Part shown: positions 18,613-48,274 of the stretch, piece after piece
How positions within the stretch are numbered: the first letter of the stretch is position 1
Layout of the letters: each line of letters opens with the position of its first letter
Source: Escherichia coli
Lineage (GTDB): Bacteria > Pseudomonadota > Gammaproteobacteria > Enterobacterales > Enterobacteriaceae
Reading direction: 5' to 3' (one strand)
NCBI RefSeq assembly: GCF_003991155.1
Contig: NZ_CP031293.1
DNA length: 64,000 nt
Notes under the pieces: model-generated
What the model saw: only the letters and a program-made list of their open reading frames with translations
What the model was told of the DNA's origin: nothing
The model's database searches: none
Made by a program: the position numbers and the translations under genes

Positions 18613-19922
18613 CCCTTAAGTTTTGCCTGATAGTAACTTTCCGGCAGATAGCCATGTGCGGTCACATAATCCTTAACCAGTGAAGGATCCTGCAACAGCA
18701 TTTTGGTATCAGTTTCTTCGTCCTTAGATTTGGTTACAGGAATACCGAGCCCGGCAATCTGTCGTTTCTGCATTCGAATAATTACGTCCTGCGCTTTATT
18801 CAACTCTCGCAAAAATGCCTCATTGCTGGTTGCTGACTTAATGCCATTTTGAGATTGCATAAGGGCAGCCCTTTCCCCTTCGGTTGGGTTAGAGCCAAAA
18901 GTCCCTTTGAGGCTAGGCAGAATAACCTTTAGGTTGTATTCATCAGCTTTGGCGCGTAGGCTTCGTGTGTCTTCTGCTACATCAGGAAGGAATCCAAACC
19001 CCAGCGTCAGGGGGTTATAGTTCTGCGAGCGGGTAACGGCCGAAGGATGTTTCCCTACAATTCCCGCCAGTTCATGACCCACTTCAAGCGCAGAGTTCAA
19101 GGAGTCGATGTTACCTACAACAGTATTAATTTTATCGTTCATCTTCTCCACTTTCGCCTGCTGTACCTTGCTCAGTTCAGCATTGAGCTTGTCTCTCTCG
19201 ATGTCATTTTGAGCACGTCCAAGTCGTGCTTTCAGAACCATTTCTCTCGTGCGTAGTTGGTTATCGGATAGGACTTTGAACTGCTCCATATCGAGACGTC
19301 GATTACCCTGTTCCGCATTAACCTGAGCATTATATGCGGATGTATCTGCGTTCTGCTGTGCAATGCTCTGCCCTTGCTGCTTCTCTTGAACACTAAAGTA
19401 ACTATTTGGATCAGCATGGAGGTGGATGAGGTCAGTGATTCTGTTGAATTCCTGTGGGTCATTCTGCCAAGACTGATAAACCTCTTCAGCAGGAAGACCA
19501 AATCGCTGTAATACTGGATTTGCCTGCTGAATGGCCTTCTGCATGGTCAGTGGATCTCCAGTTTGTGACGCAAGACGCAGATTCATGGCAGCGTCAGCGG
19601 TCTGTCGATTTTGCTCAGCATCAATGAATCCCATCTGTTTTTGAGAATCAGCCATAAACTGGGGATACTGGGCCATTAACTTCTGCACGCCAACACGATC
19701 ATTATTAGCTACCGCACTACCCAACCGTGCCTGATATTCTTTTAACTGCTGGGAAATTTGCGCCTGCTGATTAATCTCAGCAACGCCTCTTAGCCCCTGT
19801 AGCGCCATTAAACCTACGTTTGGCTGCTGCTGATACTGCACAGGCTGAGGAACGGAAGAACGAGGAGCATTATCATTTTGCGGTGCCATGCTAGGCAGCC
19901 CGCCAAGTTGCCATGTCGCCAT
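18603..19922 (-). CDS. Gln-rich coiled-coil protein, ejection-protein-like
   Basis: 439 aa; overlaps downstream gene start (operon). Confidence 0.45.
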   Translation of the reverse strand: MATWQLGGLPSMAPQNDNAPRSSVPQPVQYQQQPNVGLMALQGLRGVAEINQQAQISQQLKEYQARLGSAVANNDRVGVQKLMAQYPQFMADSQKQMGFIDAEQNRQTADAAMNLRLASQTGDPLTMQKAIQQANPVLQRFGLPAEEVYQSWQNDPQEFNRITDLIHLHADPNSYFSVQEKQQGQSIAQQNADTSAYNAQVNAEQGNRRLDMEQFKVLSDNQLRTREMVLKARLGRAQNDIERDKLNAELSKVQQAKVEKMNDKINTVVGNIDSLNSALEVGHELAGIVGKHPSAVTRSQNYNPLTLGFGFLPDVAEDTRSLRAKADEYNLKVILPSLKGTFGSNPTEGERAALMQSQNGIKSATSNEAFLRELNKAQDVIIRMQKRQIAGLGIPVTKSKDEETDTKMLLQDPSLVKDYVTAHGYLPESYYQAKLKGWQ

Positions 19923-20599
19923 TAGAATCCAAGCCCCCCAACAAGACCAATAAGCCCACCACCAATAGCGCCGGCCGCAGTTCCTATTCCAGGAACAACG
20001 GAACCAAGTTGCGCACCCGCTAAAGCGCCTGATGCTGCCCCACCAATACCACGCGCAAGACTGGATGGCTGCTGCGCCTGACCTGCACGAATAGCGCCAA
20101 GCCCCTGCAAGAGTTGTCCGGTATTATTGGCGTAGTTTTGCCCTGCCGTTGCCTGCCCTGATGCCGCATTCATCCCGACATTTAGCAGGTTTCCATAATT
20201 TTGCATTTGCCCACTAAGCCAATTGTTATAAAGCATGGGCGCAATGGAAGATAACTGGTTACTGGTAGCTGTTGAGCCAAGCCCCCCGGTAGCTTCTGCT
20301 GAGACAAGGTTCTGATAACGGGCCTGATCTGCCTGTGTTTTATATAAACCAGAACCAAAGAAATCATTCGCGGCTTTATTCTGCCCTTCCAGAGTCATCA
20401 GTCCTTGCAGTTGTTGTAAAGCAGGCAATCCGACTTCTGCATACGGCTTGAGATTATTCATCACCGTATTCCACTGCTCGCGCTGCAAATCAATTGCCTG
20501 CTGCTGGGCCTTCGCCTGAGCTTTAGAGGCACCACCATCACCGCCTTTTTCGTATACGGCACGATTGAGATGTTTATGAGCTATATGGGTAATTAACAT
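19922..20599 (-). CDS. Gly/Ala-rich protein with hydrophobic C-terminus, ejection-protein-like
   Basis: 225 aa; C-terminal GxxxG-rich hydrophobic segment; contiguous with neighbours. Confidence 0.45.
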   Translation of the reverse strand: MLITHIAHKHLNRAVYEKGGDGGASKAQAKAQQQAIDLQREQWNTVMNNLKPYAEVGLPALQQLQGLMTLEGQNKAANDFFGSGLYKTQADQARYQNLVSAEATGGLGSTATSNQLSSIAPMLYNNWLSGQMQNYGNLLNVGMNAASGQATAGQNYANNTGQLLQGLGAIRAGQAQQPSSLARGIGGAASGALAGAQLGSVVPGIGTAAGAIGGGLIGLVGGLGF

Positions 20600-21054
20600 T
20601 CGCTGAATTCCTTATATTGTTGCCGAGTTAACTGATAAAGCGTTACGCCGACGGGTTTACCACATCTGATATAAGCATCATCAAGGTGACCAACACGGGT
20701 AGCGCCAAGCAAACGGATAATTGCCCGTCCATATTTTGTGGTGTCAGGAACCATAGTGATGCTGTTAAGGAATGGTGAGTTTTCGAGAAGCCATTTGCAG
20801 AATAATCGATGCCCTTGCAGTGCATATTCACCACGGAATCCGGGGTCGTACACCGCATGGCATTCAACAACGCTATGCCAGAAGTTACGCACTTCATGAA
20901 CGCCAGCCAGCACTAATCCTTCGTAGATGCCGAGATATACCGCATCAGGCTTGATGTAGTACGTGTGCCCCGGCTCAACAATATTTTCGGTATTGCCTGG
21001 CTCGTTAAGAAAGGCCTGTAATCGCACAGGGTTATCAATAAATTTTAGTTCCAT
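20593..21054 (-). CDS. Hypothetical protein (153 aa), first large gene of the module
   Basis: ORF-track; overlaps next gene start. Confidence 0.4.
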   Translation of the reverse strand: MELKFIDNPVRLQAFLNEPGNTENIVEPGHTYYIKPDAVYLGIYEGLVLAGVHEVRNFWHSVVECHAVYDPGFRGEYALQGHRLFCKWLLENSPFLNSITMVPDTTKYGRAIIRLLGATRVGHLDDAYIRCGKPVGVTLYQLTRQQYKEFSEC

Positions 21055-21070
21055 GCGATGCCATCCATTT

Positions 21071-21232
21071 TCACATACAGCCTGCCAGCGCCTTATCTAT
21101 TAACCCTCGTGCAATTTCATGCAGAGTTGGCGCTACTCCAATTCCTGATTTTTTACGCTGCTCTTCCTGAATTTTCTTTATCGCTTCCATTTGCTTCTCA
21201 CTTATCAATACCGGCTTTACTGAAATAGCCAT
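21071..21232 (-). CDS. Small RHH-like protein (about 53 aa)
   Basis: Internal start MAISVKPVLISEKQMEAIKKIQEE... within the 96-aa track ORF; beta-strand plus two helices pattern. Confidence 0.3.
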   Translation of the reverse strand: MAISVKPVLISEKQMEAIKKIQEEQRKKSGIGVAPTLHEIARGLIDKALAGCM

Positions 21233-21685
21233 AACGCCCCCCTTAGAACTGTATAAAACAACAGTTATTATAGTTTCACAAATCGCAATATTCATCATCG
21301 TAATTGCAAAATATGAAACAAATAGCACAAAAAAATGCCACCGCTCAGTAGCTGGTGGCATCGTTCTGTGTGTCAGGTTTTGACAGGTTTTTTATGGACT
21401 CTAAAAACTATATTTATGGTATCGCATTACTCTTCACGGCAGGTGCTTTTCAGTTCTGCCCTTGCTTCTGGCTCCATTGGTAATTTGATTCGCGATCAGC
21501 TATGCGGATGGTTTGCTGAACAGGCATAACAACTTCTCAGAGGCTGTTTTTTGAACTACGAAAATTTCGTAGTGCTCACTTTCAAAAACGTCACGCCCTT
21601 GTACACAGGATTTTACGAAAGTCTCGTAAAACACTCTCTGATGCCAGCCAGGTGTTGTGCGCATCAATTCAGTCACATTGTGTCG

Positions 21686-21799
21686 GTTCAAAATACCGTG
21701 TTGTTGGTTCAGTGTTGGTTCAATAAAAAGAATAAAATCCTTATAAAACAATACACTTTACAAATTGAACCAACTGAACCAACTGAACCAACACCTTTT
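21686..21799. repeat. Iteron cluster B (TGAACCAAC repeats), right inverted repeat
   Basis: Three tandem 9-mers at 21762-21793; degenerate copies at 21686-21722; immediately 3' of the primase gene. Confidence 0.65.
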
Positions 21800-21817
21800 C
21801 TACGCACATGAAGAAGC

Positions 21818-24577
21818 TCATTCTTCAGATGAGTTATAATCTCCTGGCTGGTAATTGAGTACATAAACGTTTATTTGTCGTCCCTGAATACGTGGTGATT
21901 TTCTTTGGTATCCACGACCGCTGTTTGGTGGGGTTAGCATCCCGGCTTTTTTCAACACTTCAGCAAACTGTTTTGCGTTGAAACCACATGCGATCTCCTT
22001 TTCAAATGTGGCCGGGAATGTGTAGAAAATCATTGGGCTTTCGTCATGTTCTCCACGCTGACGGTATCCGGCTAAATCTTTGATGGGCAAATCTGCCGGG
22101 CTGTATGGAAATGGTGCAAAACGGCTAAGCCCATAGGCATTAAGAAATGCCTCCGTTTGTTCAATAATCTGCTGATGCTCTTTGTTACCTGTGCCGAACT
22201 CGCGCAACCATGCGTTATAGCTGTGCTGTATCGCATCACGGCATGTCTGAGCATCCCAGCCTGTTACAACCTCGCCTAACAACAATGCGGCCTCCAGAAT
22301 GGCAAATCGCGCGGCTACACGGTGAACCTGCTCACCATAATCGGATGGGATCAGGCTTCTCCATCTGCTTTCGCAATCACGAACGGTTTTAATAGCCTGT
22401 TGCTGGTGGTGTGCCAGCCATTTAATCCACTCACGCCCGGACGCGCCGTGGTGATGCTGGTAAGCGTCTTTCAGTGCGTCTGCGTGCTGTTTTCCGTTCT
22501 GGTAATCGTGAAAGCGTACTGCTTTACTCAACGGAATATTCAGCAGTCGCACCAGTTGCCCGGCTTTGGTTTTTCGCCCGGAAGTAGCGATAAATGTTTC
22601 TAAATCCATTTCTCCGGTGCTGATTGCCACTGTACGCCAGCGTTTTAGATCCCGGTTTCCACCATCTTTAGCGCCTTGCAGTTTCCCTACACCGTTAAAT
22701 AACGCATAGGCAGACTGTGAAACGCTGACAGGATCAGCGCCCTGACCAACTTCATCAAGCGGCATTAGTCCGTCATTGTGGGCGGCGGCCTCATTTGCCA
22801 GCCCCAGCGCGGTTCCGTACCACGTCAGCCGCAGTAAATCAGGGTTGCCGTATAAGCTGCTCGCCACGTTTGCCGTGGTGGTCTTACCTGCGCTCGACTG
22901 CTCATAGAAATGAATGCCGAACCCGTCAGCGCCCACCAGCCCAATCAATGGCGCTGCCAGTGCTGCGCCGATCCCGGTCATCATTGAATAGTTACCAAAG
23001 GCCAGACGCGCCACGTTATCACGCCAGCTTTTCGCGCTCCCTGAGACGGTATATCCGGCTGCGGCTGAGCTTCTCCCGCTGAACAGCACAGGATTTTCAG
23101 GTGTTCCGATGATTTCCCCATCAGGCATGATGTACGCTCCGCATTGCCAGCCAGTGGCATGAGCAACACGCCACAATTCACGAGAGCCACTGCGTTGTAG
23201 CCAGTCTGCCAGTATTGCTCTGAGGCTGCTTTTGGTCGTGACATTTACCCCACCAGCTTTAAGTGTGCGCCATCCTTCACGTTCACCAATATCAGCCAGT
23301 GGAATGGCAGCGGTTGTCGGCGTTTCAGAACCAAACGACAGCCAGCGAAGAATGAGATACTGGTCTTTATCGTCTCTGCCAGTACCGATAACGCTTAACG
23401 GAGAACATAACCAGCTTTCGTTATTGATGATTTCTCCACTCTGGCTGTCAGCTCTCGGAGATACCCAATAAATACCATCCTCGCGGCTTTCTATTCTTGG
23501 TTTCAGTGGGTCGGTATCCATAACCTTAAAATCGCTTCCCTCAATGGTCTGTGGCTCCTGTTTCACGCCATTACCCTGTGGTTGGTACATTGACTTATTG
23601 AACGCTTCTGTGGCGCATTTAATGCCGTGTTTTTGGTGGTAATCATTCCAGTCTGCTTTGTGATCTGTCGGGGGTAATGCCACCCATCCAGAAACAGATA
23701 AAGCTGCTTTTTCTGCTGCTATTCTCCCCGTGTTTTGTCTTCCTTCGCTGTGGTCGTTATCCGCAGCAATGATGATTTGTGCTGAAGGAAATTTATCCCG
23801 CAGTACCTGGGCGACATATAACAGGTTCCCGGCATCAATCGCCGCCACTGTCAGCGCCTCTGGACGAATTAAATGGGCAGATAATGCCGTTGCCAGACCT
23901 TCTGCGATTAAGATGCTCTGTGTTGTTTCTGGTGCGTTTATGGCGTGATATGCCCCCCGCTTTGCTGAACCTGTCAGGAGTCTTTTTTCACCATGTGAGG
24001 TAATAGTCTGTGCTGCTGTGACTGCGCCGGATTTATCCACCAGCGCCAGCAACAGAGATCCATCGGGCAACACGGGGAATGTAAAATCACCTACCCCTTT
24101 CGCAACCAGATAATCAGATTTGCCGTTTACAGCCTTTCTGCGCATGTCATCAAACTGACGGGAAAACGTATCCCGTCTTTGTTGTTCGTCCTTCTCTGCC
24201 CTTTTCAGGCGCTCCTGTTCGCGTCGCTGGCGCTCGGTTTCCAGTTGTTCCCGTTTCTGGCTGGTGGCTTCTGGTGTTTCCGTTGTCCGGTAATCAATAC
24301 CCAGAACATCAGCGGCAAGAAGCGCCGCCTCTGTTGTGTCGCAGTTATTTACGCGTTTAATTAAATCCAGCCCATCACCAGCGCCGCACTGATTACAGAT
24401 GAAGCTACCGCGCCCGTTGTCATCGAACCGGAATCGATCTTTGCCCCCACATGCAGGGCAGGGAGCATGACGGCGCGGAGAGTCAGGGACATTTATGTTC
24501 AGGCAGCCCAGCACATGAGGCCAGTTGTTTTCAGACGCACTGATAACCTGACGGATAAGATCAATGTTTCGCATCAC
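21818..24577 (-). CDS. P4 alpha-like primase-helicase (zinc finger + toprim + P-loop NTPase)
   Basis: 919 aa; CPACGG..CNQCG zinc-binding motif, toprim-like IIIAADNDH, Walker A SSAGKTTT and Walker B LMPLDEV. Confidence 0.8.
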   Translation of the reverse strand: MMRNIDLIRQVISASENNWPHVLGCLNINVPDSPRRHAPCPACGGKDRFRFDDNGRGSFICNQCGAGDGLDLIKRVNNCDTTEAALLAADVLGIDYRTTETPEATSQKREQLETERQRREQERLKRAEKDEQQRRDTFSRQFDDMRRKAVNGKSDYLVAKGVGDFTFPVLPDGSLLLALVDKSGAVTAAQTITSHGEKRLLTGSAKRGAYHAINAPETTQSILIAEGLATALSAHLIRPEALTVAAIDAGNLLYVAQVLRDKFPSAQIIIAADNDHSEGRQNTGRIAAEKAALSVSGWVALPPTDHKADWNDYHQKHGIKCATEAFNKSMYQPQGNGVKQEPQTIEGSDFKVMDTDPLKPRIESREDGIYWVSPRADSQSGEIINNESWLCSPLSVIGTGRDDKDQYLILRWLSFGSETPTTAAIPLADIGEREGWRTLKAGGVNVTTKSSLRAILADWLQRSGSRELWRVAHATGWQCGAYIMPDGEIIGTPENPVLFSGRSSAAAGYTVSGSAKSWRDNVARLAFGNYSMMTGIGAALAAPLIGLVGADGFGIHFYEQSSAGKTTTANVASSLYGNPDLLRLTWYGTALGLANEAAAHNDGLMPLDEVGQGADPVSVSQSAYALFNGVGKLQGAKDGGNRDLKRWRTVAISTGEMDLETFIATSGRKTKAGQLVRLLNIPLSKAVRFHDYQNGKQHADALKDAYQHHHGASGREWIKWLAHHQQQAIKTVRDCESRWRSLIPSDYGEQVHRVAARFAILEAALLLGEVVTGWDAQTCRDAIQHSYNAWLREFGTGNKEHQQIIEQTEAFLNAYGLSRFAPFPYSPADLPIKDLAGYRQRGEHDESPMIFYTFPATFEKEIACGFNAKQFAEVLKKAGMLTPPNSGRGYQRKSPRIQGRQINVYVLNYQPGDYNSSEE

Positions 24578-24932
24578 CGTACCCCACGTGGTCTATAGCG
24601 TTTGCGATATGGCTAACCAGCATCTGCCACTTGGTTATTCCGTAATCAGTCAGCATGCCATCATTGTTTAGCCACATATCAAATTCAGCGGTTGTCGCAA
24701 GTTTCCACTTATCGCCGTGGACAGTCCTCATTGCTGGGTACATGAATGCGCAAATCAGATCACAAACATCTGACGGCTTCAGAGATGTAGTAATGGTGCG
24801 TCCCTCTGGCGTCTGAATTGCCATTTTCTCTTCACCAGTAGAATGAAGGTTATGAATCCACACAGCACCAGCAATCTTTGCCACCTGCTCTCCGATTGCG
24901 GAGCTAAGCGCCATTTCTGCATTTTCACGCAT
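24561..24932 (-). CDS. Hypothetical protein (123 aa)
   Basis: ORF-track; overlapping stops/starts with neighbours. Confidence 0.35.
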   Translation of the reverse strand: MRENAEMALSSAIGEQVAKIAGAVWIHNLHSTGEEKMAIQTPEGRTITTSLKPSDVCDLICAFMYPAMRTVHGDKWKLATTAEFDMWLNNDGMLTDYGITKWQMLVSHIANAIDHVGYGDAKH

Positions 24933-25266
24933 GAGAACCTCCCGCTACAGTTGCGCCCATGTCATTAACCATGCTTTGCCATATCTCACGCCCGACGTCA
25001 GTCAATCCGTCCTTAGTGACGCAACGTTCAAGAAGCTCGATCCCCACGGTTTCCCACTGCGGGTAGAACACTTTCATGGCTGCCAGTGTGTAGCTATCGA
25101 TCAGGCTGCGAACGCCTTTTACTCCATTGACGATTTCCACACGGACGGCCTCGCCGTCCGCATCAACCATGAAATAGTCCCCGCCGCTGGTGGAGGTAAT
25201 GTGGTTATACAGTGCCGACGCATACTTATTTGCCAGCGCATTCAGTCGGAAATTTTTAGTAATCAT
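24925..25266 (-). CDS. Hypothetical protein (113 aa)
   Basis: ORF-track. Confidence 0.35.
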   Translation of the reverse strand: MITKNFRLNALANKYASALYNHITSTSGGDYFMVDADGEAVRVEIVNGVKGVRSLIDSYTLAAMKVFYPQWETVGIELLERCVTKDGLTDVGREIWQSMVNDMGATVAGGSHA

Positions 25267-25276
25267 GGCTCCATCC

Positions 25277-25879
25277 TCAGTGCGTCACTGGTTCCGCTGG
25301 CATGCCGTTTTCATTCAGTTCAGCTATAAAGCTGTTGTGAAGTTCAGCAAGCGTTTCACGCCCAAATGGAGTCAGTGCTCCTTGTTCCACATCCATCATG
25401 GCTCTGTAGAAAATAATGGCGCGTTCTGTGCCAGACTCGATGCCAAAACGTTCTATCATCGCGCCCTCAATGTTGTTTGCCATAGCGAGGCGCTCTGCTA
25501 CTGGATACAGCGGCATGGCGACGATGCCGTTGGAATAAACAGCCACTTCGGAAGGATTGCCAGTATCATCAATGATGCTGACAGTGCCGTTTTCCTCTCT
25601 CATTTCCAGCATGAATACTGTTGCGATCAGCCATCTCCACATAATGACGTTATGCTGTGATGTGTAATCGAAATATCCCTGGTTACCGCCATCGGCAATA
25701 GCGAGATGTATTGACATACCTTCATCTGGTTTATCGTCATAATCCCCGGCATCCAGACGATTTACGGCATCAATATATGAGATGGCCTCAACGCGTTCTG
25801 TCATGCCATCGTTGCTGCGGTACATGATGTTTACGCCGTCAGGCGTTGCTTCTGCATGGAAAGTTAAGAAATTATTCAT
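25277..25879 (-). CDS. Hypothetical protein (about 200 aa)
   Basis: ORF-track frame 25277..25984; likely start at internal Met (MNNFLTFHAE...). Confidence 0.35.
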   Translation of the reverse strand: MNNFLTFHAEATPDGVNIMYRSNDGMTERVEAISYIDAVNRLDAGDYDDKPDEGMSIHLAIADGGNQGYFDYTSQHNVIMWRWLIATVFMLEMREENGTVSIIDDTGNPSEVAVYSNGIVAMPLYPVAERLAMANNIEGAMIERFGIESGTERAIIFYRAMMDVEQGALTPFGRETLAELHNSFIAELNENGMPAEPVTH

Positions 25880-26093
25880 GTTTCGCCTCGCCTGAATGAT
25901 TCTGTAACTCATATTTGCCCAACAATTCGTCCGCTTCCTGAATAGCTTCTGGTACGCCATTGAGCAGTGACATAACCGCGCCAATCATTAACTTGTCTCT
26001 GTTGCTGGGGCTGGCCCCTTCAAGCCAGAACCCTAAAACAGTCTGAACCTGTTCGATGCGACATTGCGCTTCAATGAGCTGGATGTTGGTCAT
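25872..26093 (-). CDS. Hypothetical small protein (73 aa)
   Basis: ORF-track; 4-nt overlap with upstream gene. Confidence 0.3.
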   Translation of the reverse strand: MTNIQLIEAQCRIEQVQTVLGFWLEGASPSNRDKLMIGAVMSLLNGVPEAIQEADELLGKYELQNHSGEAKHE

Positions 26094-26353
26094 TTCGCAC
26101 TCTCCACATCGATTAAACCGATATCTATCAGGGAGGTAACTTTTTGTAGCCAGCTATTGATTACTGTCGCCTGTTCCCCTCCCACCGAGGGAACAATCTC
26201 ATTCATCACATGAACCAGACCTGTGCGCGCTCTGGTAAGCCGTTCAGTCGCGCAATCTGCGGGAGTGAATGTGTCTGGATATGGCTCTTCACGCCCCAGC
26301 AATGATTCAATTTCCAGCTCACACGGATGACGATAAATTAAGTTGATATTCAT
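26090..26353 (-). CDS. Hypothetical small protein (87 aa)
   Basis: ORF-track; ATGA-type overlaps. Confidence 0.3.
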   Translation of the reverse strand: MNINLIYRHPCELEIESLLGREEPYPDTFTPADCATERLTRARTGLVHVMNEIVPSVGGEQATVINSWLQKVTSLIDIGLIDVESAK

Positions 26354-26544
26354 TTTTCACCCCCAAGAATTACCAGCTCGGCACGGGCATCGTTAACCAA
26401 AGATGAGCACGCTTTAATCGCATCCACGACATCAGCAGCGTCCATTTCTTCAGCCGAAAGACTGACAGCAACCAGGACAGCCGCTGCTTGCTCGATTAAT
26501 TGAAGTGCGGACGTAAGTCGAGGGGCATTAATTGAGTTATTCAT
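26350..26544 (-). CDS. Hypothetical small protein (about 64 aa)
   Basis: Internal start [10 protein letters not shown]... in track ORF 26350..26601. Confidence 0.3.
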   Translation of the reverse strand: MNNSINAPRLTSALQLIEQAAAVLVAVSLSAEEMDAADVVDAIKACSSLVNDARAELVILGGEK

Positions 26545-27604
26545 TGGTTGCCCCCGTTTTTCCTGGCATTTCGCCACCTTCCAGCAGGAAATGAACGTCA
26601 CGAACGGCGAGATCCAATATCGCGAGTAACGCCTTCAGTCTTTCGTCTCGTGAGGGAGAGTTGCTCACCAGAATGTCGTTAATCACTTCTGTCAGTGTGA
26701 TGATCTGGCTTGTGCGTTCGAGGGGATCCATATGCACATCGTAGGTTTTAATCATGAGCCACCTCCATGCGGATACGACCAGCAAAAAAGCAGACGTGAT
26801 CGCGCACCAGAGAACGGCGAGCATCGCGTTCAGACTCGGCAGCAATATGATGAATTTTGGCGGTAATTGTCGAGCAATCGCGGCGAACTGCGGCGATAAT
26901 CCAGATAAATTGCGGTTTTTGGGTAGGGGTAGTAGCCAGCATGTGGCAGCCTCCATTCGATAGCATGTAACGCTACCACCGGAAACGCCAATTTCGCTGG
27001 TGGTAGCCCAGACAGGGTTGGCGTAACCGGCTCGAATGGATACCGGCGCTTCCGAAGAAGCCCCTGCCTGAGCCACCATTGATTGACAAAGGCGCTGGAT
27101 TATACACCAACGCCCAAAAAATGGGTGAGTCAGACCTACGACATAAAAAAAGACGCTCGGCGCGTCATATGTCGCCATTCGATTTACTAGGACGCCAATC
27201 CCGGCACCCGTTTTATGAGGTGCCTTATAACCATAAACCGTGTTGCCGCATAACGGCAAGCTCTTTTTTATGGACTCCGAAAACTCGCTATTGGAAGCAC
27301 CAGATGCACAGTACATCGCGCTCATTTCGTTAACGTCACGCGCGTGGACGAATGTTTTTGTGGAGTCACTACACGAGCGGAAGACATCATCTACGACCAG
27401 AAATTTTCTGGCGCAGCCGCTGACCTTCTCAATGCTAATATCATCGCCCGAGATTTCTGATATGGTTAAGGCATCCGTTCCGACCACCAGCAAATGATAA
27501 ACTTTGCTTGTATCTGCTGTATTAATGCCTGACTTTGCCGTCATATTGCTGGATTTTGGCGACATACCAGCCAGTGAAAATGTCTTCTTCTGGACGGTTA
27601 GCAT
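26537..27604 (-). CDS. Long open frame of uncertain gene structure (possibly a 72-aa gene 26537..26755 plus upstream gene)
   Basis: 355 codons without stop; composition atypical in middle part; start overlaps stop of upstream gene. Confidence 0.25.
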
Positions 27605-27780
27605 TTGTTAACCTCCGCGAACTCCTTCATGAAACGCGCCAGCGGTTGTACGCATGGCGATTGATACCCGTCGCGATAAAACGTCACTCGGTTGTGAGAC
27701 ACGCTTTCGACAGTAACGAGTGCTCCGTGGGCATCTTTGTAGCGTTTTTGTGGTTGTGGTGTTCCTGTTGGCTTAGACAT
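27598..27780 (-). CDS. Hypothetical small protein (about 60 aa)
   Basis: Internal start MSKPTGTPQPQKRYKD... with GGAGGTG Shine-Dalgarno upstream. Confidence 0.3.
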   Translation of the reverse strand: MSKPTGTPQPQKRYKDAHGALVTVESVSHNRVTFYRDGYQSPCVQPLARFMKEFAEVNKC

Positions 27781-28606
27781 TGACCACCTCCAGACGCTTG
27801 GCGAGCCAGCGTTGCGACAGGCGGGTGAGTTCTCCTTTGCGCTGCTCATATTCCATGCCCATATCAATTAACGTGATATTGGTGCTTTCGAGATATGAGA
27901 GGTGCTCAAGCTGTTCTGCGTTCATATGGTCGCGAGGTTCGCCAGAATAGCCATTTATCCGCGCCCACTGCTTAGCAGTTAGCCCACCAAGAACGATACG
28001 AGAAATCATATTGCTCTCGTTTGTGTAGTGGTGTTGCTGCGTCGTTTTACCCATCTCGGCACGGGCCATATTCAGCGCATCGCACATTGGCTTAAAGTTG
28101 TTTGCGGCACTGAGACGGGCTTTTAGCTGGCGACGATAGCGGGCGGCGATTTCAGGCACGCTACGCTGTAATTCTTCCTCGCACTGGATGAAATAACGGC
28201 GGATAGCGCGACCCTGATCATTGCGTTCGATCATTGCCAGTTCTTTCGCCATTCCGACACTTAACAGATAGTCTTTGCCGGGTCTGCCAGAGTGCTTTAT
28301 CTTGCTGTAAGCCGCGCCATTCGGGCTTTTCCCCAAATTTGGGGAAATTGTTTTATGGACTGAGTAATCGTGCCCAATGGTGAAGTCATATTCAGAGATG
28401 CGATCAGTGATCCATGTAGAGAAGTCTTTTCCCACGCCCAACGCTTTGTGTAACGCTTTTGCGCTAACAATATTGGTTTCACGCCCACCGATATGACCAG
28501 GAATAACCGGGACAATTGCGGCAAATTCATTACCGTTAATTGTGCTCAGAGAGGCGTTCAGATGAGGGGCGGCCTCAGAAATTAATCTGCTTTTTTCGAT
28601 GTTCAT
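27773..28606 (-). CDS. Phage antirepressor-like protein (AntA/KilAC-type)
   Basis: 277 aa; N-terminus ..INGNEFAAIVPV.. and ..DYLLSVGMAKELAMIERNDQGRAIRRYFIQCEEE.. resemble antirepressor domains. Confidence 0.5.
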   Translation of the reverse strand: MNIEKSRLISEAAPHLNASLSTINGNEFAAIVPVIPGHIGGRETNIVSAKALHKALGVGKDFSTWITDRISEYDFTIGHDYSVHKTISPNLGKSPNGAAYSKIKHSGRPGKDYLLSVGMAKELAMIERNDQGRAIRRYFIQCEEELQRSVPEIAARYRRQLKARLSAANNFKPMCDALNMARAEMGKTTQQHHYTNESNMISRIVLGGLTAKQWARINGYSGEPRDHMNAEQLEHLSYLESTNITLIDMGMEYEQRKGELTRLSQRWLAKRLEVVNV

Positions 28607-28618
28607 TTTCAGTCTCCG

Positions 28619-29050
28619 TTAGGCGGCGTTAAACGCGTCCGGGTAGAGTTTCAGAATGTCGGCAATTTCCTGCTGAGAAAGTCCGTTGTGATCATTTATG
28701 TTCGCAAGATGGTTAATATGAGTGATCACTTTCAGAACATCACCACGGCAGGAGAAACGGTAGCGAAGGTGTGTTCCGATACCATCAGGATTCTTTTCGT
28801 CGATACGCTCCAGAGTGATTCCAAGCTGGCGTTCTAACTCTGTTGCATAGTTACGACCAGAAGACAGACGGCAGTAGCGAAGAATGTCATTTTCTGTCCA
28901 TCCCTCTATACCAGTACGCAGCATATAGACTCTGGCACGATGCTTTTTCGGTGTGCGCTTTGGTGCTTGAAGGGATTTTGTAAGGGGCGTAACATCAGAT
29001 ACACGAATATCTGAATTAGCCGCCTGTAATGGGCGGTTTTTCTTTTCCAT
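28619..29050 (-). CDS. Hypothetical protein (143 aa)
   Basis: ORF-track; immediately downstream of alpA. Confidence 0.35.
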   Translation of the reverse strand: MEKKNRPLQAANSDIRVSDVTPLTKSLQAPKRTPKKHRARVYMLRTGIEGWTENDILRYCRLSSGRNYATELERQLGITLERIDEKNPDGIGTHLRYRFSCRGDVLKVITHINHLANINDHNGLSQQEIADILKLYPDAFNAA

Positions 29051-29253
29051 CAGGCCACCTCGTCTCTAGATTCTAATATACACTTCTCAATCCATTCATC
29101 TATTTCAGACTCAACAAAAGCAATTGCCCGACTTCCAATTTTTACCTGTTTAGGGAACCTCCCCTGACTAATAAGACGATAAATCCATGCTTTGCTATAA
29201 CCAGTTCGCCTTTGAACTTCAGAGAGACGAATTAATGAATTGTAATTAGCCAT
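29050..29253 (-). CDS. alpA: AlpA-family transcriptional regulator/excisionase-like
   Basis: 67 aa MANYNSLIRLSEVQRRTGYSKAWIYRLISQGRFPKQVKIGSRAIAFVESEIDEWI; classic AlpA HTH. Confidence 0.75.
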   Translation of the reverse strand: MANYNSLIRLSEVQRRTGYSKAWIYRLISQGRFPKQVKIGSRAIAFVESEIDEWIEKCILESRDEVA

Positions 29254-29680
29254 TTATTAATATCCTGTACTAATGACGCAATAACCCCCTCCTGCAACGA
29301 ATGGCGAGAGTTTTATTTGCGTCAAATGTCGAATACGCCAAAGACCACAATATGAAAAACATATTGCGGTCTTTTATAAAAGATAGTCAGATTGTTTTGG
29401 TTTGTTTGCTCCACAAGGGTAGAGCTACCCTGCATTTCGGCAGGATCACGCTATTAGGCGTGACATCCAGTAGTTTTAAAGAACAATTGCGCTTTGTCAG
29501 CGCCAAAGCCTGTTAAAGAACATTCCGCTTTTCAGCAGCGTAGAAGGCTCAATACACCTTCGTTTATAAAAGAGCGATTGCCCTTCTCCAGGGCTAACTG
29601 TTAAATAGCAATCCTCTGTGAGTTTTTATCAATCTACTCCCCTATACTTTAGTAAACCTCTGTATACTTGTCCAGTTGTT

Positions 29681-30895
29681 TCATGCGTGTTTTTCAAACA
29701 CCATATGCACCACATTTCCGCCATGCTCGAGAGAATCCATATAGTCGGCATACCATTGAAGCATCTCCCGCCGTCCATCCAGATATTGCGCATGGTTGTA
29801 TGTGCCACGAATTGAGTTCTTATCAACGTGAGCGAGCTGCGTTTCTATCCACGCGGTGTTATAGCCCTGCTCATGCAAAATCGTGCTCATAGTGTGTCGG
29901 AACCCATGACCAGTTACACGTCCAGCGTAGCCAATGCGCTTAAACACTTGGTTTATGCTGGCCTCACTCATTGTTTTCCTTGGATCATTGCGCCCGGGAA
30001 ACATAAGAGGGTAATTGCCTGTTATTTCTCTAATCTTCCCAATAAGCGAAAGAGCCTGCTCAGACAATGGCACAATATGAGGCCGCCGCATTTTCATACG
30101 TGAAGCGGGTATCTCCCATATAGCCTTGTTGAAATCAATTTCATCCCATAATGCGCCACGTAGTTCGCCAGTTCGCAAGCCGGTGATAATCAGTAGACGA
30201 GCCGCCATAACAACCAATGCGCTTCCTGAGTAACTGGACAATGCCTTGAAAAAATCAGGTAATTCTTTGGTCGTAAGGAAAGGGTAATGATTAGATTCAT
30301 GGCCTTGCATCGCGCTAGTAAGGTCTGGTGCAGGGTTATACTCTGCGCGACCAGTGACTATTGCATAGCGGAAAACTTCCCCGCACCGCTGCCTCACTTT
30401 TTTGGCTTTTTCTGTCGCACCGCGCCCCTCGATGCGCCGCAGCACATTCAGAAGTTCAAGTGGTTTGATTTCGGCGATTGGTTTTTTGCCAATGTAAGGG
30501 AACACATCTTTGTTGAAGGCTTCGAGGATGTCTGAAGCATAACCAGCAGACCATTTTTTTAATTTGCTGCTGTGCCACTCAAGGGCAATATCTTTGAAGG
30601 TGTTGTTTAACTGCGTTTCCCGGGCAATCTTTTCCTCTCGTTTCGCTTCCATCGGATCGATACCACCAGCGATACCTCTTTTCGCATCTTCACGTTTTGC
30701 CCGAGCATCGGCTAGAGTAACCTCAGGATACACACCTAGTGCCAATAGCTTCTCTTTACCAGCTACACGATATTTAAGTCGCCAGTATTTACCTCCATTA
30801 GGTTTTACCAAGAGATACAAACCGCCACCATCGGCCAGCTTGTAAGCCTTCTCTTTTGGCTTGGCTGTGTCTATTTGACGGGCATTGAGTTTCAC
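29681..30895 (-). CDS. P4-type tyrosine integrase, thrW-adjacent
   Basis: 404 aa; N-terminal arm-binding domain (..KLADGGGLYLLVKPNGGKYWRLKYR..) and catalytic HGFRHT...Y motifs; adjacent to tRNA. Confidence 0.85.
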   Translation of the reverse strand: MKLNARQIDTAKPKEKAYKLADGGGLYLLVKPNGGKYWRLKYRVAGKEKLLALGVYPEVTLADARAKREDAKRGIAGGIDPMEAKREEKIARETQLNNTFKDIALEWHSSKLKKWSAGYASDILEAFNKDVFPYIGKKPIAEIKPLELLNVLRRIEGRGATEKAKKVRQRCGEVFRYAIVTGRAEYNPAPDLTSAMQGHESNHYPFLTTKELPDFFKALSSYSGSALVVMAARLLIITGLRTGELRGALWDEIDFNKAIWEIPASRMKMRRPHIVPLSEQALSLIGKIREITGNYPLMFPGRNDPRKTMSEASINQVFKRIGYAGRVTGHGFRHTMSTILHEQGYNTAWIETQLAHVDKNSIRGTYNHAQYLDGRREMLQWYADYMDSLEHGGNVVHMVFEKHA

Positions 30896-30965
30896 TTGGG
30901 GGTACCTCCACTAAACCGAACAGCAAATACCCCCATAAGTACCCCCATCTGACCGTAGATTTTGA

Positions 30966-31043
30966 GGGACTTTAGTAGACGTCAAAAGACGAACGGGGCT
31001 TTAATACGCGGATTATAAGGGGTTTTGAAAGACTTTAGTAGAC
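30966..31043. promoter_or_regulatory. attL arm region with direct repeats GACTTTAGTAGAC x2
   Basis: Copies at 30967-30980 and 31031-31043 between integrase start and thrW; putative arm-type binding sites. Confidence 0.4.
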
Positions 31044-31060
31044 TTGGGGAGATGTTTGAA

Positions 31061-31136
31061 TGGTGCCGATAATAGGAGTCGAACCTACGACCTTCGCATT
31101 ACGAATGCGCTGCTCTACCAACTGAGCTATATCGGC
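31061..31136 (-). tRNA. thrW: tRNA-Thr (anticodon CGU)
   Basis: Reverse complement GCCGATATAGCTCAGTTGGTAGAGCAGCGCATTCGTAATGCG...GGTTCGACTCCTATTATCGGCACCA. Confidence 0.9.
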
Positions 31137-39849: not shown

Positions 39850-40464
39850 TTACACAGCAACAAAAGCCATCCCTGTAAATGTCCGTCGCGGGTTGCCACG
39901 TTCAATCTGGTGATGGAACATTCGCCGCTGCGATTTCAGCACCGCGCTATTTTCCTGTTGCTGTTGTTCCAGCTTCCATGCAATCAGCAATCGCGCCAGC
40001 CGCTTGTTAGCATGCTGACTACGCTCTGACTGAACCTTCACGCTAATTCCGGTAGCCAAATGCGTGGCGCGTACCGCCGAGTCGGTTTTATTGACATGTT
40101 GACCGCCCGGCCCCGACGAACGCAGCGTCTCATAACGGATCGCGTCGGATTGCTCCTGCTCATCAGCGGTAAAACGCCCAATGCCCAGAAACCAGTTTTT
40201 GCGCCTATGATGAGGCCGATACGGACTCGGACAAATCCACTGAATAGTGCCGCACCAACTTTCGCTTAATGCCCATGCGTTATCGCCATCCAGAGAAACC
40301 AGCGCTGAACGCAGCGTGTCAGAGTAGCGGCCCGTTTCTGTTTCCAGCACCGTTACCGCGACGTCTTGTCGGGTAGCTTCTTTAATCAGCCTGTCCAGCG
40401 CCTTTTTCACTGCCAGGCAACATTCTTCCGGCCCCTGAGCTGAGGAGAGTTGTAGCAAGATCAT
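39850..40464 (-). CDS. prfH: Peptide chain release factor homolog PrfH (full length)
   Basis: [40 protein letters not shown] (GGQ motif); start taken at [11 protein letters not shown]. Confidence 0.7.
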
Positions 40465-41600
40465 CCTTTTTTCCCTCCACTGTTTTTGAGCGTTAGCACC
40501 GGACGCAGTCGCGCGACAGGAATAATTAACCCAGCCTGCACCAGACATTGCACCACGCTTTCAGCCGATTTATAAGCTTGTGGCGCTTCTTCAAAGATGA
40601 GTTGTTTATCGCGACAAATTACCCGGCTGCCAAGTTCAGTACGTGAGAGCTGCGTCGCTGTGTATTTCGCTGCCAGACGCCCTTTACACTCAGTACGTCC
40701 CCATTTGCGCCCTGCCCCATGCGCCAGCGAGTGGAGCGTTTTTTCGTTCGCAACAGGTTTAACCAGCCAGGAGTAATCGCCGCGTGAACCGGGAATAATC
40801 ACCAGACCGTTGTCATCCGGCGTGGCGCCTTTACGATGCAACCAGCCCTGTTGATCGCCGATTTGGCACGCGCTAACAAAGTTATGCGCCACATCCAGAA
40901 CCGGACTTCCGGTGGCCTTAACTTGTTGCATTATGCGCAAAGCGATCAGCTGGCGATTAATACGCGCAAACGCCAGCGCATCATCATGTTCCACAATATA
41001 ACTTAGCGCGTCGTCACTGCCTTCAGGCAAACCATGATGCGAAAACGAGGCAATATGCCGCTGTAAAATAGACTGGCCCAAACCCCGCGAGCCGCTATGA
41101 ACCAGCAGTTGCAGATGCTGCGCATCCAGACCTGTCAGTGCAAACAGTTCAGCGTCGATAATTTGATCAACTTGTTGCAGTTCTGCGAAGTGGTTTCCGC
41201 CACCGATGGAACCCAGCGAGCTGCGCCACGGATGCTGTGCTAACGCTGACGGCAGGTTTTCCTCCAGCCAGCTTTCTTCAGCAACGTCATCCAGCGCAGA
41301 TAATCGCTTTTCAAACTTATCGGCGTTGTATTTGCGCGCGAAAATATCTGTTTGCCATAGCGCCATACCGCAGCCGATATCATTGCCGACCAGTGCCGGG
41401 TAAAAACGGCCTACGGAGAAGAACGCTGCGCCAATCGGATAGCCGCGTCCGGGGTGTAAATCTGGCATCCCTACTACGCGTTGCATGTCGGGTAAATTTG
41501 CCGTGGTGTGTAATTGTTGGATCGCTAAACTCTCGATCCACAGGTCATCAGATGCGATGGTAAATACCGCATCGGATAAGGGACGAATATATTTGCCCAT
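40461..41600 (-). CDS. RtcB-family RNA ligase paralog (prfH-associated)
   Basis: About 380 aa with His/Cys-rich RtcB-like motifs; stop overlaps prfH start. Confidence 0.7.
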
Positions 41601-41790
41601 GTACCATTCCATTTATGAATAAAAATCAGGAAATGGCAGACGAATCCAGGGCAAGAAAAAAAGAATTAATCCTGGAAAGGTCTGCAAAGAGTCATTGATA
41701 AAGGATTTGTCATGATTTACCTCCTTGCAGTTTGTGGAATAAGAAAACGCGCACATACTAGGCGGGCGTTATTTTCTTTGCAAGCTGGAT

Positions 41791-42243
41791 TTAATGTTGC
41801 GGTTTATATCGCATATAAAAATTAGTAAACCACGCTCCCCGGCATTCAACGCGCTGCTGCTTAACTGTCTGAAAACCATAACGTTCAAAAAAGGGTTTTG
41901 CGGTTATGCTGGCATCTACCGTTAGTTCGGATTCAGACTTAATCAAAGGTTTTAACAAAGCGCTGGCAACCCCACGGCGGGTGTATTCAGGGTCAACAAA
42001 TAACATATCGATATAGTGTTCAACGCAGGTAATAAAGCCGACCAGTTTTGCATTAATGACTGCAACCCGCACTTGTGATTTCGCGAGTTTCTCCTTCCAG
42101 CGAGATTCGTCAATCTGCGCCCAGGCGGCAATTTGTTGTGGTGAATAATGCTGACTGGCGGTCATCGTAACCGCTCTAAGGAAAATAGCGCATAGTTGCT
42201 GAAAATCGCCAGGCTGATAGTTTCTTATTTGTATGTTATTCAT
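41791..42243 (-). CDS. yafP: GNAT-family acetyltransferase
   Basis: 150 aa; start codon overlaps dinB stop (ATGA). Confidence 0.8.
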
Positions 42244-43295
42244 AATCCCAGCACCAGTTGTCTTTCCATTTGAGGGTCAAGTAACGTCACATGCAGCCCC
42301 ACCAGACGCACACCGCGCCCGCCACGGCGTTCATTCCAGGTTTTACGCGCGGTGGCGATTAAGTCAGCTTTATTCAGCCGCGGCCAGACGTGCTCCTGAG
42401 TGGTTTGCTGAAAATCATCAAACTTTAATTTCACCCCCTGGCGAGCAATCAGTAAATCAGGTTTTACCTTTGCCAGACGGCGTTCAAGTTCAGGATACAG
42501 CCGCTCAATAATCGCTTCACATTCAGACCAGTGATGAATATCTTCCGCCATCGTGCGTTCCACGCCGACGGATTTTCGCAACCGTTCGCTGTTAACGTCG
42601 CGCTCGTCAATCCCCTGACTACGCTCCCACAAAATGCGTCCAAATTTGCCAAAACGTTTGAGCAGAGTCACCAGATCACACTTTTGCACATCACCGCAGG
42701 TCCGCAGCCCCATCGCTTCCAGTTTTGCCGCCGAGACTTTGCCGACGCCGGGAATTTTTGCCAGCGGTAAGGTTTGCAGAAATGCCGGAACTTCTGCCGG
42801 CGTAATCACAAACTGACCGTTGGGTTTATTCATGTCGGAAGCAATTTTGGCGAGAAACTTTACCGGCGCAACGCCCGCAGATGCCGTCAGTTGCAGCTCG
42901 TTAAAGATCGTCTGGCGGATTTCCTGGGCGATGAGGGTCGCGGAGCCGTGGCAATGCACACTATCGGTGACGTCGAGATAGGCTTCATCCAGTGATAACG
43001 GTTCAATGCGCGAGGTATAGCGCGAGAAAATTTCGCGGATATGATTTGAGGCTTCTTTGTAGGCGTCAAAGCGCCCTGGAAGCAGCGTGAGATGTGGGCA
43101 TAATTTGAGCGCCATCCCTGTCGGCATAGCGCTGCGTACGCCAAATTTACGCGCGGGATAATTGGCGGTGCTGATCACCCCCCGACGTTCGCGGCTGCCG
43201 CCAATAGCAATAGGGATATCGCGCAGGGCAGGATTGTCGCGCATCTCCACCGCTGCGAAAAAGCAGTCCATATCCACATGAATGATTTTACGCAT
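42240..43295 (-). CDS. dinB: DNA polymerase IV
   Basis: 351 aa [22 protein letters not shown]... Confidence 0.9.
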
Positions 43296-43309: not shown

Positions 43310-43329
43310 CACTGGTAAAGTATACAGTG
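43310..43329. promoter_or_regulatory. LexA (SOS) box upstream of dinB
   Basis: CACTGGTAAAGTATACAGTG palindrome (CTG-N10-CAG) about 15 bp upstream of dinB start. Confidence 0.55.
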
Positions 43330-43365
43330 ATTTCAGGGCTTGAGAAATGCGTAAAGATTCAGCAT

Positions 43366-44256
43366 TTAACGCGTTCGCTGTGAAAGCACCTGCTGCTTAT
43401 CCAGCTTTTGCACCAGCGGCTGCACCACTTTATCCCCATGCTGACCAAAGTATTGATACAGCGTATCGGACGCGCTTTTAGTCAGCACCATAATCTCAAT
43501 GCGCCGGTTGCCCGCGCTTTGCGGATTTTTCGCGTCCAGCAGCATCTGGTCCGCCATTGCGCTCACCTGCATCACTTTATCTTCCGGCATTCCTGCCTCT
43601 TCCAGCACCCGACGAGCCGAAAGCGCGCGGTCACCCGAAAGGTTCCAGTTGTTGTAGATATTGTTTTTGTAGGCCATCGCATCGGTATGCCCGGTAATAA
43701 TAATTTTGTTATCGAGCGAGTCGAACACTGGCGCGAGCTCCACCAGCAGCGTTTTAAAGAACGGCATAATCTGCGCGCTGCCACGTTCGAACATATTGCG
43801 ATTCTGGTCGTCTTTAATCAGCACGCGTAATCCCTGCGGGACAATCTCCATCTCCAGATTCGCTTCCATATGCGCATCACGGGCAATGGTGTTGATACTG
43901 GTTGCCAGCTCACCAAGCTCGGTGGCGGATTTCTTCTTCAGCAGCGCCGTTTTCTCGTTGACGTCGCGCGCTTTTTTCTCCGTTTCTTCCGGCACCGCCA
44001 CGGTGGCAGGTTTTGACGGATGAGACGGGCTGATTTTATTTAACGGCGACAGCCCACCACCGTTAAAAATCGACTGCCCGTGCAGCGCGGCGATAATGCT
44101 TTCACGCTCGGATTTACTGACGCTGTTGACAATCAACTTTATCGTCGTCACCAAAGGGGCCGAGCGTATTTCCGAGGTTTCTGCCCGCTTTACCCTGGAC
44201 GCGATGCCCGGCAAGCAGATGGCGATTGACGCCGATCTTAACGCCGGGTTGATCAA
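43366..44256 (-). pseudogene. lafU: Flag-2 remnant: MotB-like LafU fragment (C-terminal OmpA-like domain retained)
   Basis: C-terminal ..IIITGHTDAMAYKNNIYNNWNLSGDRALSARRVLEEAGMP... MotB/OmpA-like; N-terminus lacks the expected TM anchor; frame overlaps lfhA remnant. Confidence 0.55.
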
Positions 44257-45835
44257 TCAGGCGCAGGCGCAGACCCGGCGTAAAGATGTTGCCAGCGAGG
44301 CCGATTTCTACGGCGCGATGGACGGGGCATCGAAGTTTGTGCGCGGGGATGCCATCGCCGGGATGATGATTCTGGCGATCAACCTGATCGGCGGCGTCTG
44401 TATCGGGATCTTCAAATACAACCTGAGCGCCGACGCCGCCTTCCAGCAGTATGTGCTGATGACCATCGGCGACGGGCTGGTGGCGCAGATCCCTTCCCTG
44501 CTGCTCTCCACCGCGGCGGCGATTATCGTCACCCGCGTCAGCGACAACGGCGATATCGCCCATGACGTGCGCCACCAGCTGCTGGCAAGCCCGTCGGTGC
44601 TCTACACCGCCACCGGGATCATGTTTGTGCTGGCGGTGGTGCCGGGGATGCCGCATCTGCCATTTTTGCTGTTCAGCGCCCTGCTTGGCTTTACCGGCTG
44701 GCGGATGAGCAAACGCCCGCAGGCGGCGGAGGCGGAAGAGAAAAGCCTCGAAACACTGACCCGCACCATCACCGAAACCAGCGAGCAACAGGTCAGTTGG
44801 GAAACCATTCCGCTGATCGAGCCTATCAGCTTAAGTCTCGGCTACAAGCTGGTGGCGCTGGTGGACAAAGCGCAGGGGAACCCGCTCACCCAGCGGATTC
44901 GCGGCGTGCGGCAGGTGATATCCGACGGCAACGGCGTGCTGCTACCGGAGATCCGCATTCGGGAAAACTTCCGCCTCAAGCCCAGCCAGTACGCCATTTT
45001 CATCAACGGCATTAAGGCTGATGAAGCGGATATTCCGGCGGATAAACTGATGGCCCTGCCCTCCAGTGAAACCTACGGTGAGATTGACGGCGTGCTGGGG
45101 AACGACCCGGCGTATGGGATGCCGGTCACCTGGATCCAGCCCGCGCAGAAGGCGAAGGCGCTGAATATGGGGTATCAGGTGATCGACAGCGCCAGCGTAA
45201 TTGCCACACATGTGAATAAGATTGTGCGCAGCTATATTCCTGACCTCTTTAACTATGACGATATTACGCAGTTGCATAACCGCCTGTCGTCGATGGCACC
45301 GCGCCTGGCGGAGGATTTGAGCGCGGCGCTCAATTACAGTCAGTTGCTGAAAGTGTACCGGGCGCTGCTGACCGAAGGCGTTTCCCTGCGCGATATCGTC
45401 ACCATCGCCACCGTGCTGGTTGCCAGTAGCGCGGTGACCAAAGATCATATTCTGCTGGCGGCTGATGTGCGCCTGGCGCTGCGGCGCAGCATTACCCATC
45501 CGTTCGTTCGCAAACAGGAGCTGACGGTGTATACGCTGAATAATGAGCTGGAAAATCTGCTGACCAACGTAGTGAATCAGGCGCAACAGGGCGGCAAAGT
45601 GATGCTCGACAGCGTGCCGGTGGACCCGAATATGCTTAACCAGTTCCAGAACACGATGCCGCAGGTGAAGGAGCAGATGAAAGCGGCGGGGAAAGACCCT
45701 GTGCTGCTGGTGCCTCCGCAGTTGCGCCCTTTGCTGGCGCGCTACGCAAGGTTGTTTGCGCCGGGGCTGCATGTGCTGTCGTATAACGAAGTGCCGGACG
45801 AGCTGGAGTTGAAGATTATGGGGGCGTTGATGTAG
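44096..45835 (+). pseudogene. lfhA: Flag-2 remnant: FlhA-like LfhA fragment (N-terminally truncated)
   Basis: 579 aa FlhA-like C-terminal region (..FVRGDAIAGMMILAINLIGG..) without the N-terminal membrane domain. Confidence 0.6.
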
Positions 45836-47546: not shown

Positions 47547-47562
47547 CTGAATAAATATACAG
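47547..47562. promoter_or_regulatory. LexA-box-like site upstream of dinJ
   Basis: CTGAATAAATATACAG (CTG-N10-CAG) about 17 bp upstream of dinJ start. Confidence 0.45.
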
Positions 47563-47578
47563 CACAGGAGATATCCCA

Positions 47579-47839
47579 ATGGCTGCTAACGCGTTTGTTC
47601 GCGCCCGAATCGATGAAGATCTGAAGAATCAGGCGGCGGACGTACTGGCCGGGATGGGGCTGACCATCTCTGACCTGGTTCGCATAACCCTCACAAAGGT
47701 CGCGCGTGAAAAGGCATTGCCGTTTGATTTACGCGAGCCTAATCAATTAACTATTCAATCAATCAAAAACAGCGAAGCTGGCGTTGGTATTCATAAGGCC
47801 AAAGACGCCGATGATTTATTTGATAAATTAGGAATTTAA
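47579..47839 (+). CDS. dinJ: DinJ antitoxin
   Basis: 86 aa MAANAFVRARIDEDLKNQAADVLAGMGLTISDLVRITL... Confidence 0.85.
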   Translation: MAANAFVRARIDEDLKNQAADVLAGMGLTISDLVRITLTKVAREKALPFDLREPNQLTIQSIKNSEAGVGIHKAKDADDLFDKLGI

Positions 47840-47841
47840 AT

Positions 47842-48118
47842 ATGATTCAAAGGGATATTGAATACTCGGGACAATTTTCAAAGGATGTAAAACTTGCACA
47901 AAAGCGTCATAAGGATATGAATAAATTGAAATATCTTATGACGCTCTTATCAATAATACTTTACTGCTTCCAGCTGTTTATAAAGACCACCCGCTGCAAG
48001 GTTCATGGAAAGGTTATCGCGATGCTCATGTCGAACCGGACTGGATCCTGATTTACAAACTTACCGATAAACTTTTACGATTTGAGAGAACTGGAACTCA
48101 CGCGGCGCTATTTGGGTA
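47842..48118 (+). pseudogene. yafQ: YafQ toxin gene with apparent 1-bp frameshift
   Basis: Frame 1 gives MIQRDIEYSGQFSKDVKLAQKRHKDMNKLKYLMTLL then aberrant tail to stop at 48048; +1 frame from about 47951 gives NNTL.LPAVYKDHPLQGSWKGYRDAHVEPDWILIYKLTDKLLRFERTGTHAALFG* ending 48118. Confidence 0.6.
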
Positions 48119-48274
48119 AAGCCCGCTGCCGATGAAATTTGTAAACCCTGCGCCGACAGGCTTGCGTAAAACTCTTTTGGTGATAATGTGAGCCTTCCAA
48201 ATCCAGACTATTCCGATTTGGGATCCATTTTGCCGTCCTGGCGTGTGTAACCGTTTTATCAAGGAATAAGCAGT

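Follow-up and report, generated by a model that had tools for sequence, protein, structure and literature searches.

Direct overlap of dinB and yafP without the yafN-yafO pair in an Escherichia coli strain: a common two-gene form of the dinB operon

The 64-kb stretch of Escherichia coli DNA analysed here (the window) very probably carries the common two-gene allele of the dinB operon, in which yafNO is absent and dinB overlaps yafP, an ordinary polymorphism. The initial annotation proposed that the stop codon of dinB and the start codon of yafP share the letters ATGA, and this is borne out by the open reading frame listing and by the minus-strand sequence of the junction (CTGGTGCTGGGATTATGAATAACATA), in which dinB ends with the codons CTG GTG CTG GGA TTA TGA and yafP begins with ATG AAT AAC. 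Both reading frames are intact (open reading frame listing and Pfam). DinB matches the Pfam families IMS (4.9e-51, residues 7-154), IMS_HHH, IMS_HHH_1 and IMS_C (residues 240-347), as expected of a full-length Y-family polymerase, and differs from the K-12 protein by two amino-acid substitutions; its 99.4% identity to the characterised K-12 enzyme suggests that it would be active in translesion synthesis. YafP, with nine substitutions relative to K-12, has a GNAT domain that matches Acetyltransf_10 (1.3e-19) and also Acetyltransf_7 and Acetyltransf_1. Queries with K-12 YafN and YafO (tblastn) gave no match anywhere in the 64-kb window, and no PhdYeFM-type antitoxin gene with a YafO_toxin gene behind it, the order by which a YafN-YafO type II toxin-antitoxin system is defined, is found there. 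With the ATGA overlap and neither yafN nor yafO, the locus belongs to the two-gene dinB-yafP class as defined by Gutierrez et al. (2011; NAR 39:4192, PMC3105422). The record of E. coli 2016C-3878 (NZ_CP029747.1), a human rectal-swab isolate, is 100% identical to the window and is annotated in RefSeq with the same two genes. Coordinates are collected in Table 1.

Table 1. Features of the dinB operon and its neighbourhood in the window
Feature	Position	Strand	Basis and remarks
Promoter-like site TTCTCA-16 nt-TATACT, upstream of dinB	43319..43346	-	Consensus match only
Candidate LexA box CTGTATACTTTACCAG (CTG-N10-CAG)	43312..43327	-	Pattern search; overlaps the predicted -10 element of the dinB promoter
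dinB, DNA polymerase IV	42240..43295	-	ORF, 351 aa; first operon gene; Pfam, RefSeq annotation of the identical record
ATTATGA, single copy	42240..42246	-	Pairwise alignment with K-12
ATGA overlap of dinB and yafP	42240..42243	-	dinB stop TGA 42242..42240; yafP start ATG 42243..42241
yafP, GNAT-family N-acetyltransferase	41791..42243	-	ORF, 150 aa; second and last operon gene; Pfam, RefSeq
rtcB-family RNA ligase gene, then prfH	39850..41612	-	383-aa ORF for rtcB (RefSeq 40461..41600)
Flag-2 lateral flagellar cluster remnant	43366..45835		
LexA-box-like site CTGTATATTTATTCAG by dinJ-yafQ	47547..47562		Pattern search
dinJ-yafQ pair	47579..48119	+	dinJ 86 aa
Island between tRNA-Thr (beside proA) and yagU	about 17105..31064		About 14 kb

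The annotation of K-12 MG1655 shows the operon as dinB-yafN-yafO-yafP (McKenzie 2003 and Singletary 2009, as cited in PMC3105422), as the initial annotation had stated, with 756 nt between the end of dinB and the start of yafP. The window aligns collinearly with K-12 at a megablast identity of about 96%, with one clean 759-nt gap in the window; dinB, yafP, the promoter, the LexA box and the surroundings are common to both. Because of this gap and the lack of any tblastn match, the further claim that the strain has no yafN-yafO inside its SOS-regulated dinB operon also stands, and K-12 itself shows no direct dinB-yafP junction that would speak against the contrast drawn. The additional K-12 DNA is a 752-nt cassette consisting of a 51-nt yafN upstream region (the yafN promoter/operator region), yafN, yafO and the 9 nt that precede yafP. 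On either side of this cassette stands a copy of ATTATGA, the first holding the dinB stop codon and the second the yafP start codon, whereas the window has neither the cassette nor the second copy and keeps a single ATTATGA. The repeat at the junction is thus 7 nt long, longer than the ATGA of 4 nt described in earlier work, and the heptamer is conserved in 20/20 Escherichia loci compared. The two-gene operons of CFT073 and UTI89 (PMC3105422; PMC7167474) have the same genes, order, ATGA overlap and LexA-controlled promoter region, and the chromosomal neighbourhood is shared as well, with lafU upstream and rtcB-prfH/pepD downstream; the window shows no structural difference from them and differs in having a flank haplotype of its own. 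A comparable arrangement at another locus, with another toxin-antitoxin family, is relA-mazEF-mazG as opposed to relA-mazG, where a toxin-antitoxin pair likewise lies between two cistrons of a host operon and strains without the pair have an 'undisturbed bicistronic operon' (Fraikin et al., 2020; PMC7167474).

The survey of yafNO across E. coli that the initial annotation had suggested finds both states at about the same frequency. Among 5426 complete E. coli genomes, the dinB-yafP region is present in 5416; a 160-nt junction-spanning probe for the direct junction matched end to end in 2569 (47%), and the 752-nt yafNO cassette occurs in 2847 (52%). These two counts add up exactly to the number of genomes with the locus, which shows that the states complement each other and are about equally common. 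At the level of DNA identity that megablast detects, practically no two-gene genome has yafNO at another place, and for the same reason a copy elsewhere in 2016C-3878 or a sequencing error at its junction is unlikely. ATCC 25922 and O121 and O111 strains are examples of the two-gene state; K-12 and O157:H7 are examples of the four-gene state. Collapse of the yafNO segment out of the assembly can be set aside as vanishingly improbable: the identical junction recurs in 2569 independent complete genomes, it was confirmed by PCR and sequencing in ECOR strains (Gutierrez et al., 2011), both frames in the window are intact, and nothing speaks in favour of an artefact.

Much of this picture is already in print. 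Gutierrez et al. (2011) found only dinB and yafP in 40-50% of E. coli strains, described the two genes in such strains as 'always fused together' through a 4-nt ATGA overlap, and used CFT073 as the two-gene model strain; in their phylogroup survey nearly all group A strains were four-gene, all B1 strains were two-gene, and B2 and D were mixed. They concluded that deletion, through recombination between ATGA sequences, had happened independently at least three times. Fraikin et al. (2020) described yafNO as inserted downstream of dinB and noted that strains without it, e.g. UTI89, keep dinB-yafP as an undisturbed bicistronic operon. The polymorphism, the ATGA overlap, the phylogroup distribution and both evolutionary readings are therefore published.

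LexA control of dinB within the SOS response is stated in both papers (PMC3105422; PMC7167474). The region upstream of dinB in the window, with promoter and LexA box, is identical to that of K-12 in the alignment, and a LexA box lies at the promoter, as in members of the SOS (LexA) regulon. A single LexA-repressed promoter would thus drive dinB and then yafP directly behind it, and SOS-induced, LexA-repressed co-transcription of the two genes may be expected in this strain by extension from K-12 and CFT073. A scan for intrinsic terminators after yafP gave none that was convincing; its two matches both lie on the wrong strand. The yafP gene of the window has at best a weak Shine-Dalgarno sequence (GGTG, 8 nt upstream of the ATG), and K-12 yafP, which starts 9 nt after the yafO stop codon, is likewise without a clear one. 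Ribosomes that terminate on dinB would most likely re-initiate on yafP through the ATGA, i.e. the two genes would be translationally coupled. In K-12 and CFT073, YafP is established to act on nitroaromatic genotoxins and Pol IV to bypass the resulting lesions (Gutierrez et al., 2011), and the same roles in nitroaromatic genotoxin damage can be presumed for the two proteins here.

The K-12-type cassette is flanked by a 7-nt repeat of which the window has one copy, and hence a precise deletion is the most likely origin of the window's structure. Such an event between the two ATTATGA copies would restore the clean dinB/yafP overlap, and we favour, with moderate confidence, deletion between the repeats as the more likely origin of the E. 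coli two-gene alleles, that of the window included. 'Lacks yafNO' should not be taken as 'lost', since the change may have run in either direction. Possibly the site was never occupied, the two-gene operon being ancestral and K-12-type strains having gained a mobile yafNO by an insertion that duplicated ATTATGA, although we regard this as rather unlikely. A direct adjacency of the two genes is widespread: YafP homologues (56-65% identity) lie directly behind dinB, without yafNO, in Citrobacter amalonaticus, Kluyvera sichuanensis and Raoultella, where the dinB stop codon is followed by 2-5 nt and an ATG within the same pepD-gpt-frsA neighbourhood, and E. marmotae has the two-gene, overlapping form (GGGTTATGAATAAC). 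The module is also mobile, since Klebsiella variicola and a Pectobacteriaceae genome have yafNO homologues (67-69% identity) in unrelated islands. An insertion would further agree with the word 'inserted' used by Fraikin et al. (2020), with the resemblance of the 7-nt direct repeat beside the cassette to a target-site duplication, with a cassette G+C content of 42% compared with 54% for dinB, and with a yafO dS of 0.03 compared with 0.17-0.28 for dinB, as expected if the cassette is younger than the DNA around it. The base composition, however, does not set the cassette apart, as yafP itself has 43% G+C.

A counterweight to a site that was never occupied comes from other lineages in which dinB and yafNO are linked. 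Pseudocitrobacter (locus L031, 2097..4358) has dinB-yafN-yafO-yafP; the cassette lies at the same position, with the same left boundary, the region upstream of yafN is homologous, and there is no 7-nt flanking repeat. The synonymous divergence of the Pseudocitrobacter genes from K-12 is similar throughout (pS of 0.64 for yafN, 0.76 for yafO and 0.66 for dinB), the cassette being as saturated as dinB. An enterobacterium whose DinB is 88% identical to that of E. coli (L039, 1579..5389, and L040) has dinB-yafN-yafO followed by rtcB-prfH and no yafP, the converse of the arrangement in the window, where yafP is present without yafNO. A divergent Escherichia-like contig (L042) has the four-gene order with TAA as the dinB stop codon and no ATTATGA repeat, and E. 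fergusonii was reported as four-gene (PMC3105422). The linkage of dinB and yafNO in Pseudocitrobacter, L039 and the Escherichia-like contig is therefore old, spans several genera and predates E. coli, and its occurrence without ATTATGA means that the 7-nt repeat is no general insertion scar. Because of this combination of linkage, saturated divergence and absent repeat in Pseudocitrobacter, L039 and L042, we gave less weight to the proposal that the repeat is a target-site duplication and hence marks a recent insertion. A plasmid search (blastn in distant mode) for an independent cassette found none; its 14 matches are F' episomes or chromosome fragments that carry the whole dinB region.

Flanking sequences were compared in ten two-gene, ten four-gene and one three-gene loci. 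The two- and four-gene states are thoroughly interleaved in neighbour-joining trees, whether these are built from dinB, from yafP or from the 300 nt or 200 nt next to the junction. Two-gene 1162T7 and four-gene FDAARGOS_1253 differ at 1/600 flank positions and two-gene AR437 and four-gene O157 at 7/600, while two-gene alleles differ among themselves at up to 45/600; identical DinB or YafP proteins are common to some two- and four-gene strains. Such interleaving on many flank haplotypes indicates that the state has changed, or has been transferred, many times, a result that agrees with and extends the 2011 conclusion. That two-gene alleles nest within four-gene haplotypes (1/600) also argues against a never-occupied site, a simple deletion being easier than repeated identical insertions. 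The haplotype of the window is a separate one, at 14-45/600 from the sampled two-gene alleles; its nearest four-gene allele (15/600) and nearest two-gene allele (14/600) are nearly equidistant, so that nothing dates its event. A YafP-based contig scan, whose patterns need near-identity, returned only five loci; these include E. whittamii and three further lineages of Escherichia, with none from E. fergusonii or E. albertii. A third configuration, dinB-yafN-yafP with an orphan antitoxin, is found in Escherichia sp. E1V33 (L003, 3622..4000), in which a deletion in yafO begins at about codon 11 (…AAAACTTAT) and reaches directly to the ATTATGA at yafP. Elsewhere, yafO has an internal stop codon in one E. 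coli genome, a premature stop codon in SCPM-O-B-8794 and a frameshift in an Escherichia-like metagenomic contig. With stops, a frameshift and a deletion in several loci, decay of the toxin gene is evidently common.

The divergence of the cassette bears on a further possibility. Among four-gene E. coli, the mean dS is 0.169 for dinB, 0.119 for yafN, 0.034 for yafO and 0.108 for yafP; between E. whittamii and E. coli the corresponding values are 0.283, 0.109, 0.030 and 0.205. Within Escherichia, the synonymous divergence of yafO is thus 5-9 times below that of the flanking dinB and yafP (Fisher p about 1e-5), in a small sample of 9-10 four-gene sequences (L001, 5302..5700, and yafO of L006, L008, L009, L011-L013, L017 and L019). 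Nucleotide diversity is about 1-2% within yafO and rises from about 1.6% to about 4.7% exactly at the yafO/yafP boundary, and the lowest full-length identity to K-12 among the sampled cassette matches is 98.0%, while the flanks fall to 95%. Either synonymous constraint or a cassette genealogy shallower than that of the flanks, through recent exchange between lineages, could account for the low yafO dS. The second of these would follow if the cassette cycles, repeatedly leaving by excision at the 7-nt repeats and repeatedly returning from four-gene strains through homologous recombination, so that the state of any strain is recent and reversible; we entertain this only tentatively. The interleaving of states across many flank haplotypes, the diversity trough in yafO with its step exactly at the yafP start, and the E. 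whittamii-E. coli contrast (yafO dS 0.03 compared with 0.28 for dinB and 0.21 for yafP; Fisher p about 1e-5) are consistent with cycling. The sample of only 9-10 four-gene sequences weakens it, as does the prospect that the low dS reflects synonymous-site constraint in the yafO mRNA, for which truncated toxin transcripts are reported (PMC7167474); moreover, a recombinational gain should carry donor flanks, and the yafP side has no diversity trough. The broader proposition, in which yafNO cycles at the junction rather than being 'ancestral and lost three times' as published and a recent spread has carried one cassette allele through E. coli and its sister species, seems doubtful. If true, cycling with recent spread of an allele would explain why yafO has 5-9 times less synonymous divergence than its neighbours. 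Deletion between the two ATTATGA copies remains our preferred account of the window's allele.

Further features lie elsewhere in the window. Downstream of yafP, the rtcB-family RNA ligase gene and prfH (peptide chain release factor H) are both intact in the window (Pfam RtcB, 8e-74; RF-1, 1.5e-24), and their K-12 counterparts are pseudogene fragments (ykfJ and prfH). Upstream of dinB, the Flag-2 remnant, a K-12-like scar, has lafU next to a fragment of flhA/lfhA that lacks its N-terminal part and lies on the other strand; in E. marmotae (L030) sigma factor, motA and motB genes are still present upstream of dinB. In the dinJ-yafQ pair, the dinJ antitoxin gene is intact and the yafQ toxin gene is frameshifted after ...KYLMTLL, a frameshift that is also flagged by RefSeq. 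The strain is therefore without yafNO and has a dead YafQ toxin a few kilobases away. The island next to tRNA-Thr encodes many hypothetical proteins besides a site-specific integrase, a major capsid protein, DUF4145 and DUF6945 proteins and a GNAT acetyltransferase, and resembles a small phage-like or satellite element that has integrated; K-12 presumably carries the CP4-6 prophage at this site.

As a discovery the two-gene junction carries little weight, since presence/absence polymorphism of such a chromosomal toxin-antitoxin pair is textbook-level material. Annotation can profit from it, in that K-12 is not to be used as the species norm for the dinB operon. In this strain the SOS operon would deliver Pol IV and YafP, with no YafO ribosome-dependent mRNA interferase and no YafN antitoxin. 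Recurrent switching, the spread of both forms over several genera and a shallow yafO genealogy could feed the debate on chromosomal toxin-antitoxin modules as selfish, transient passengers.
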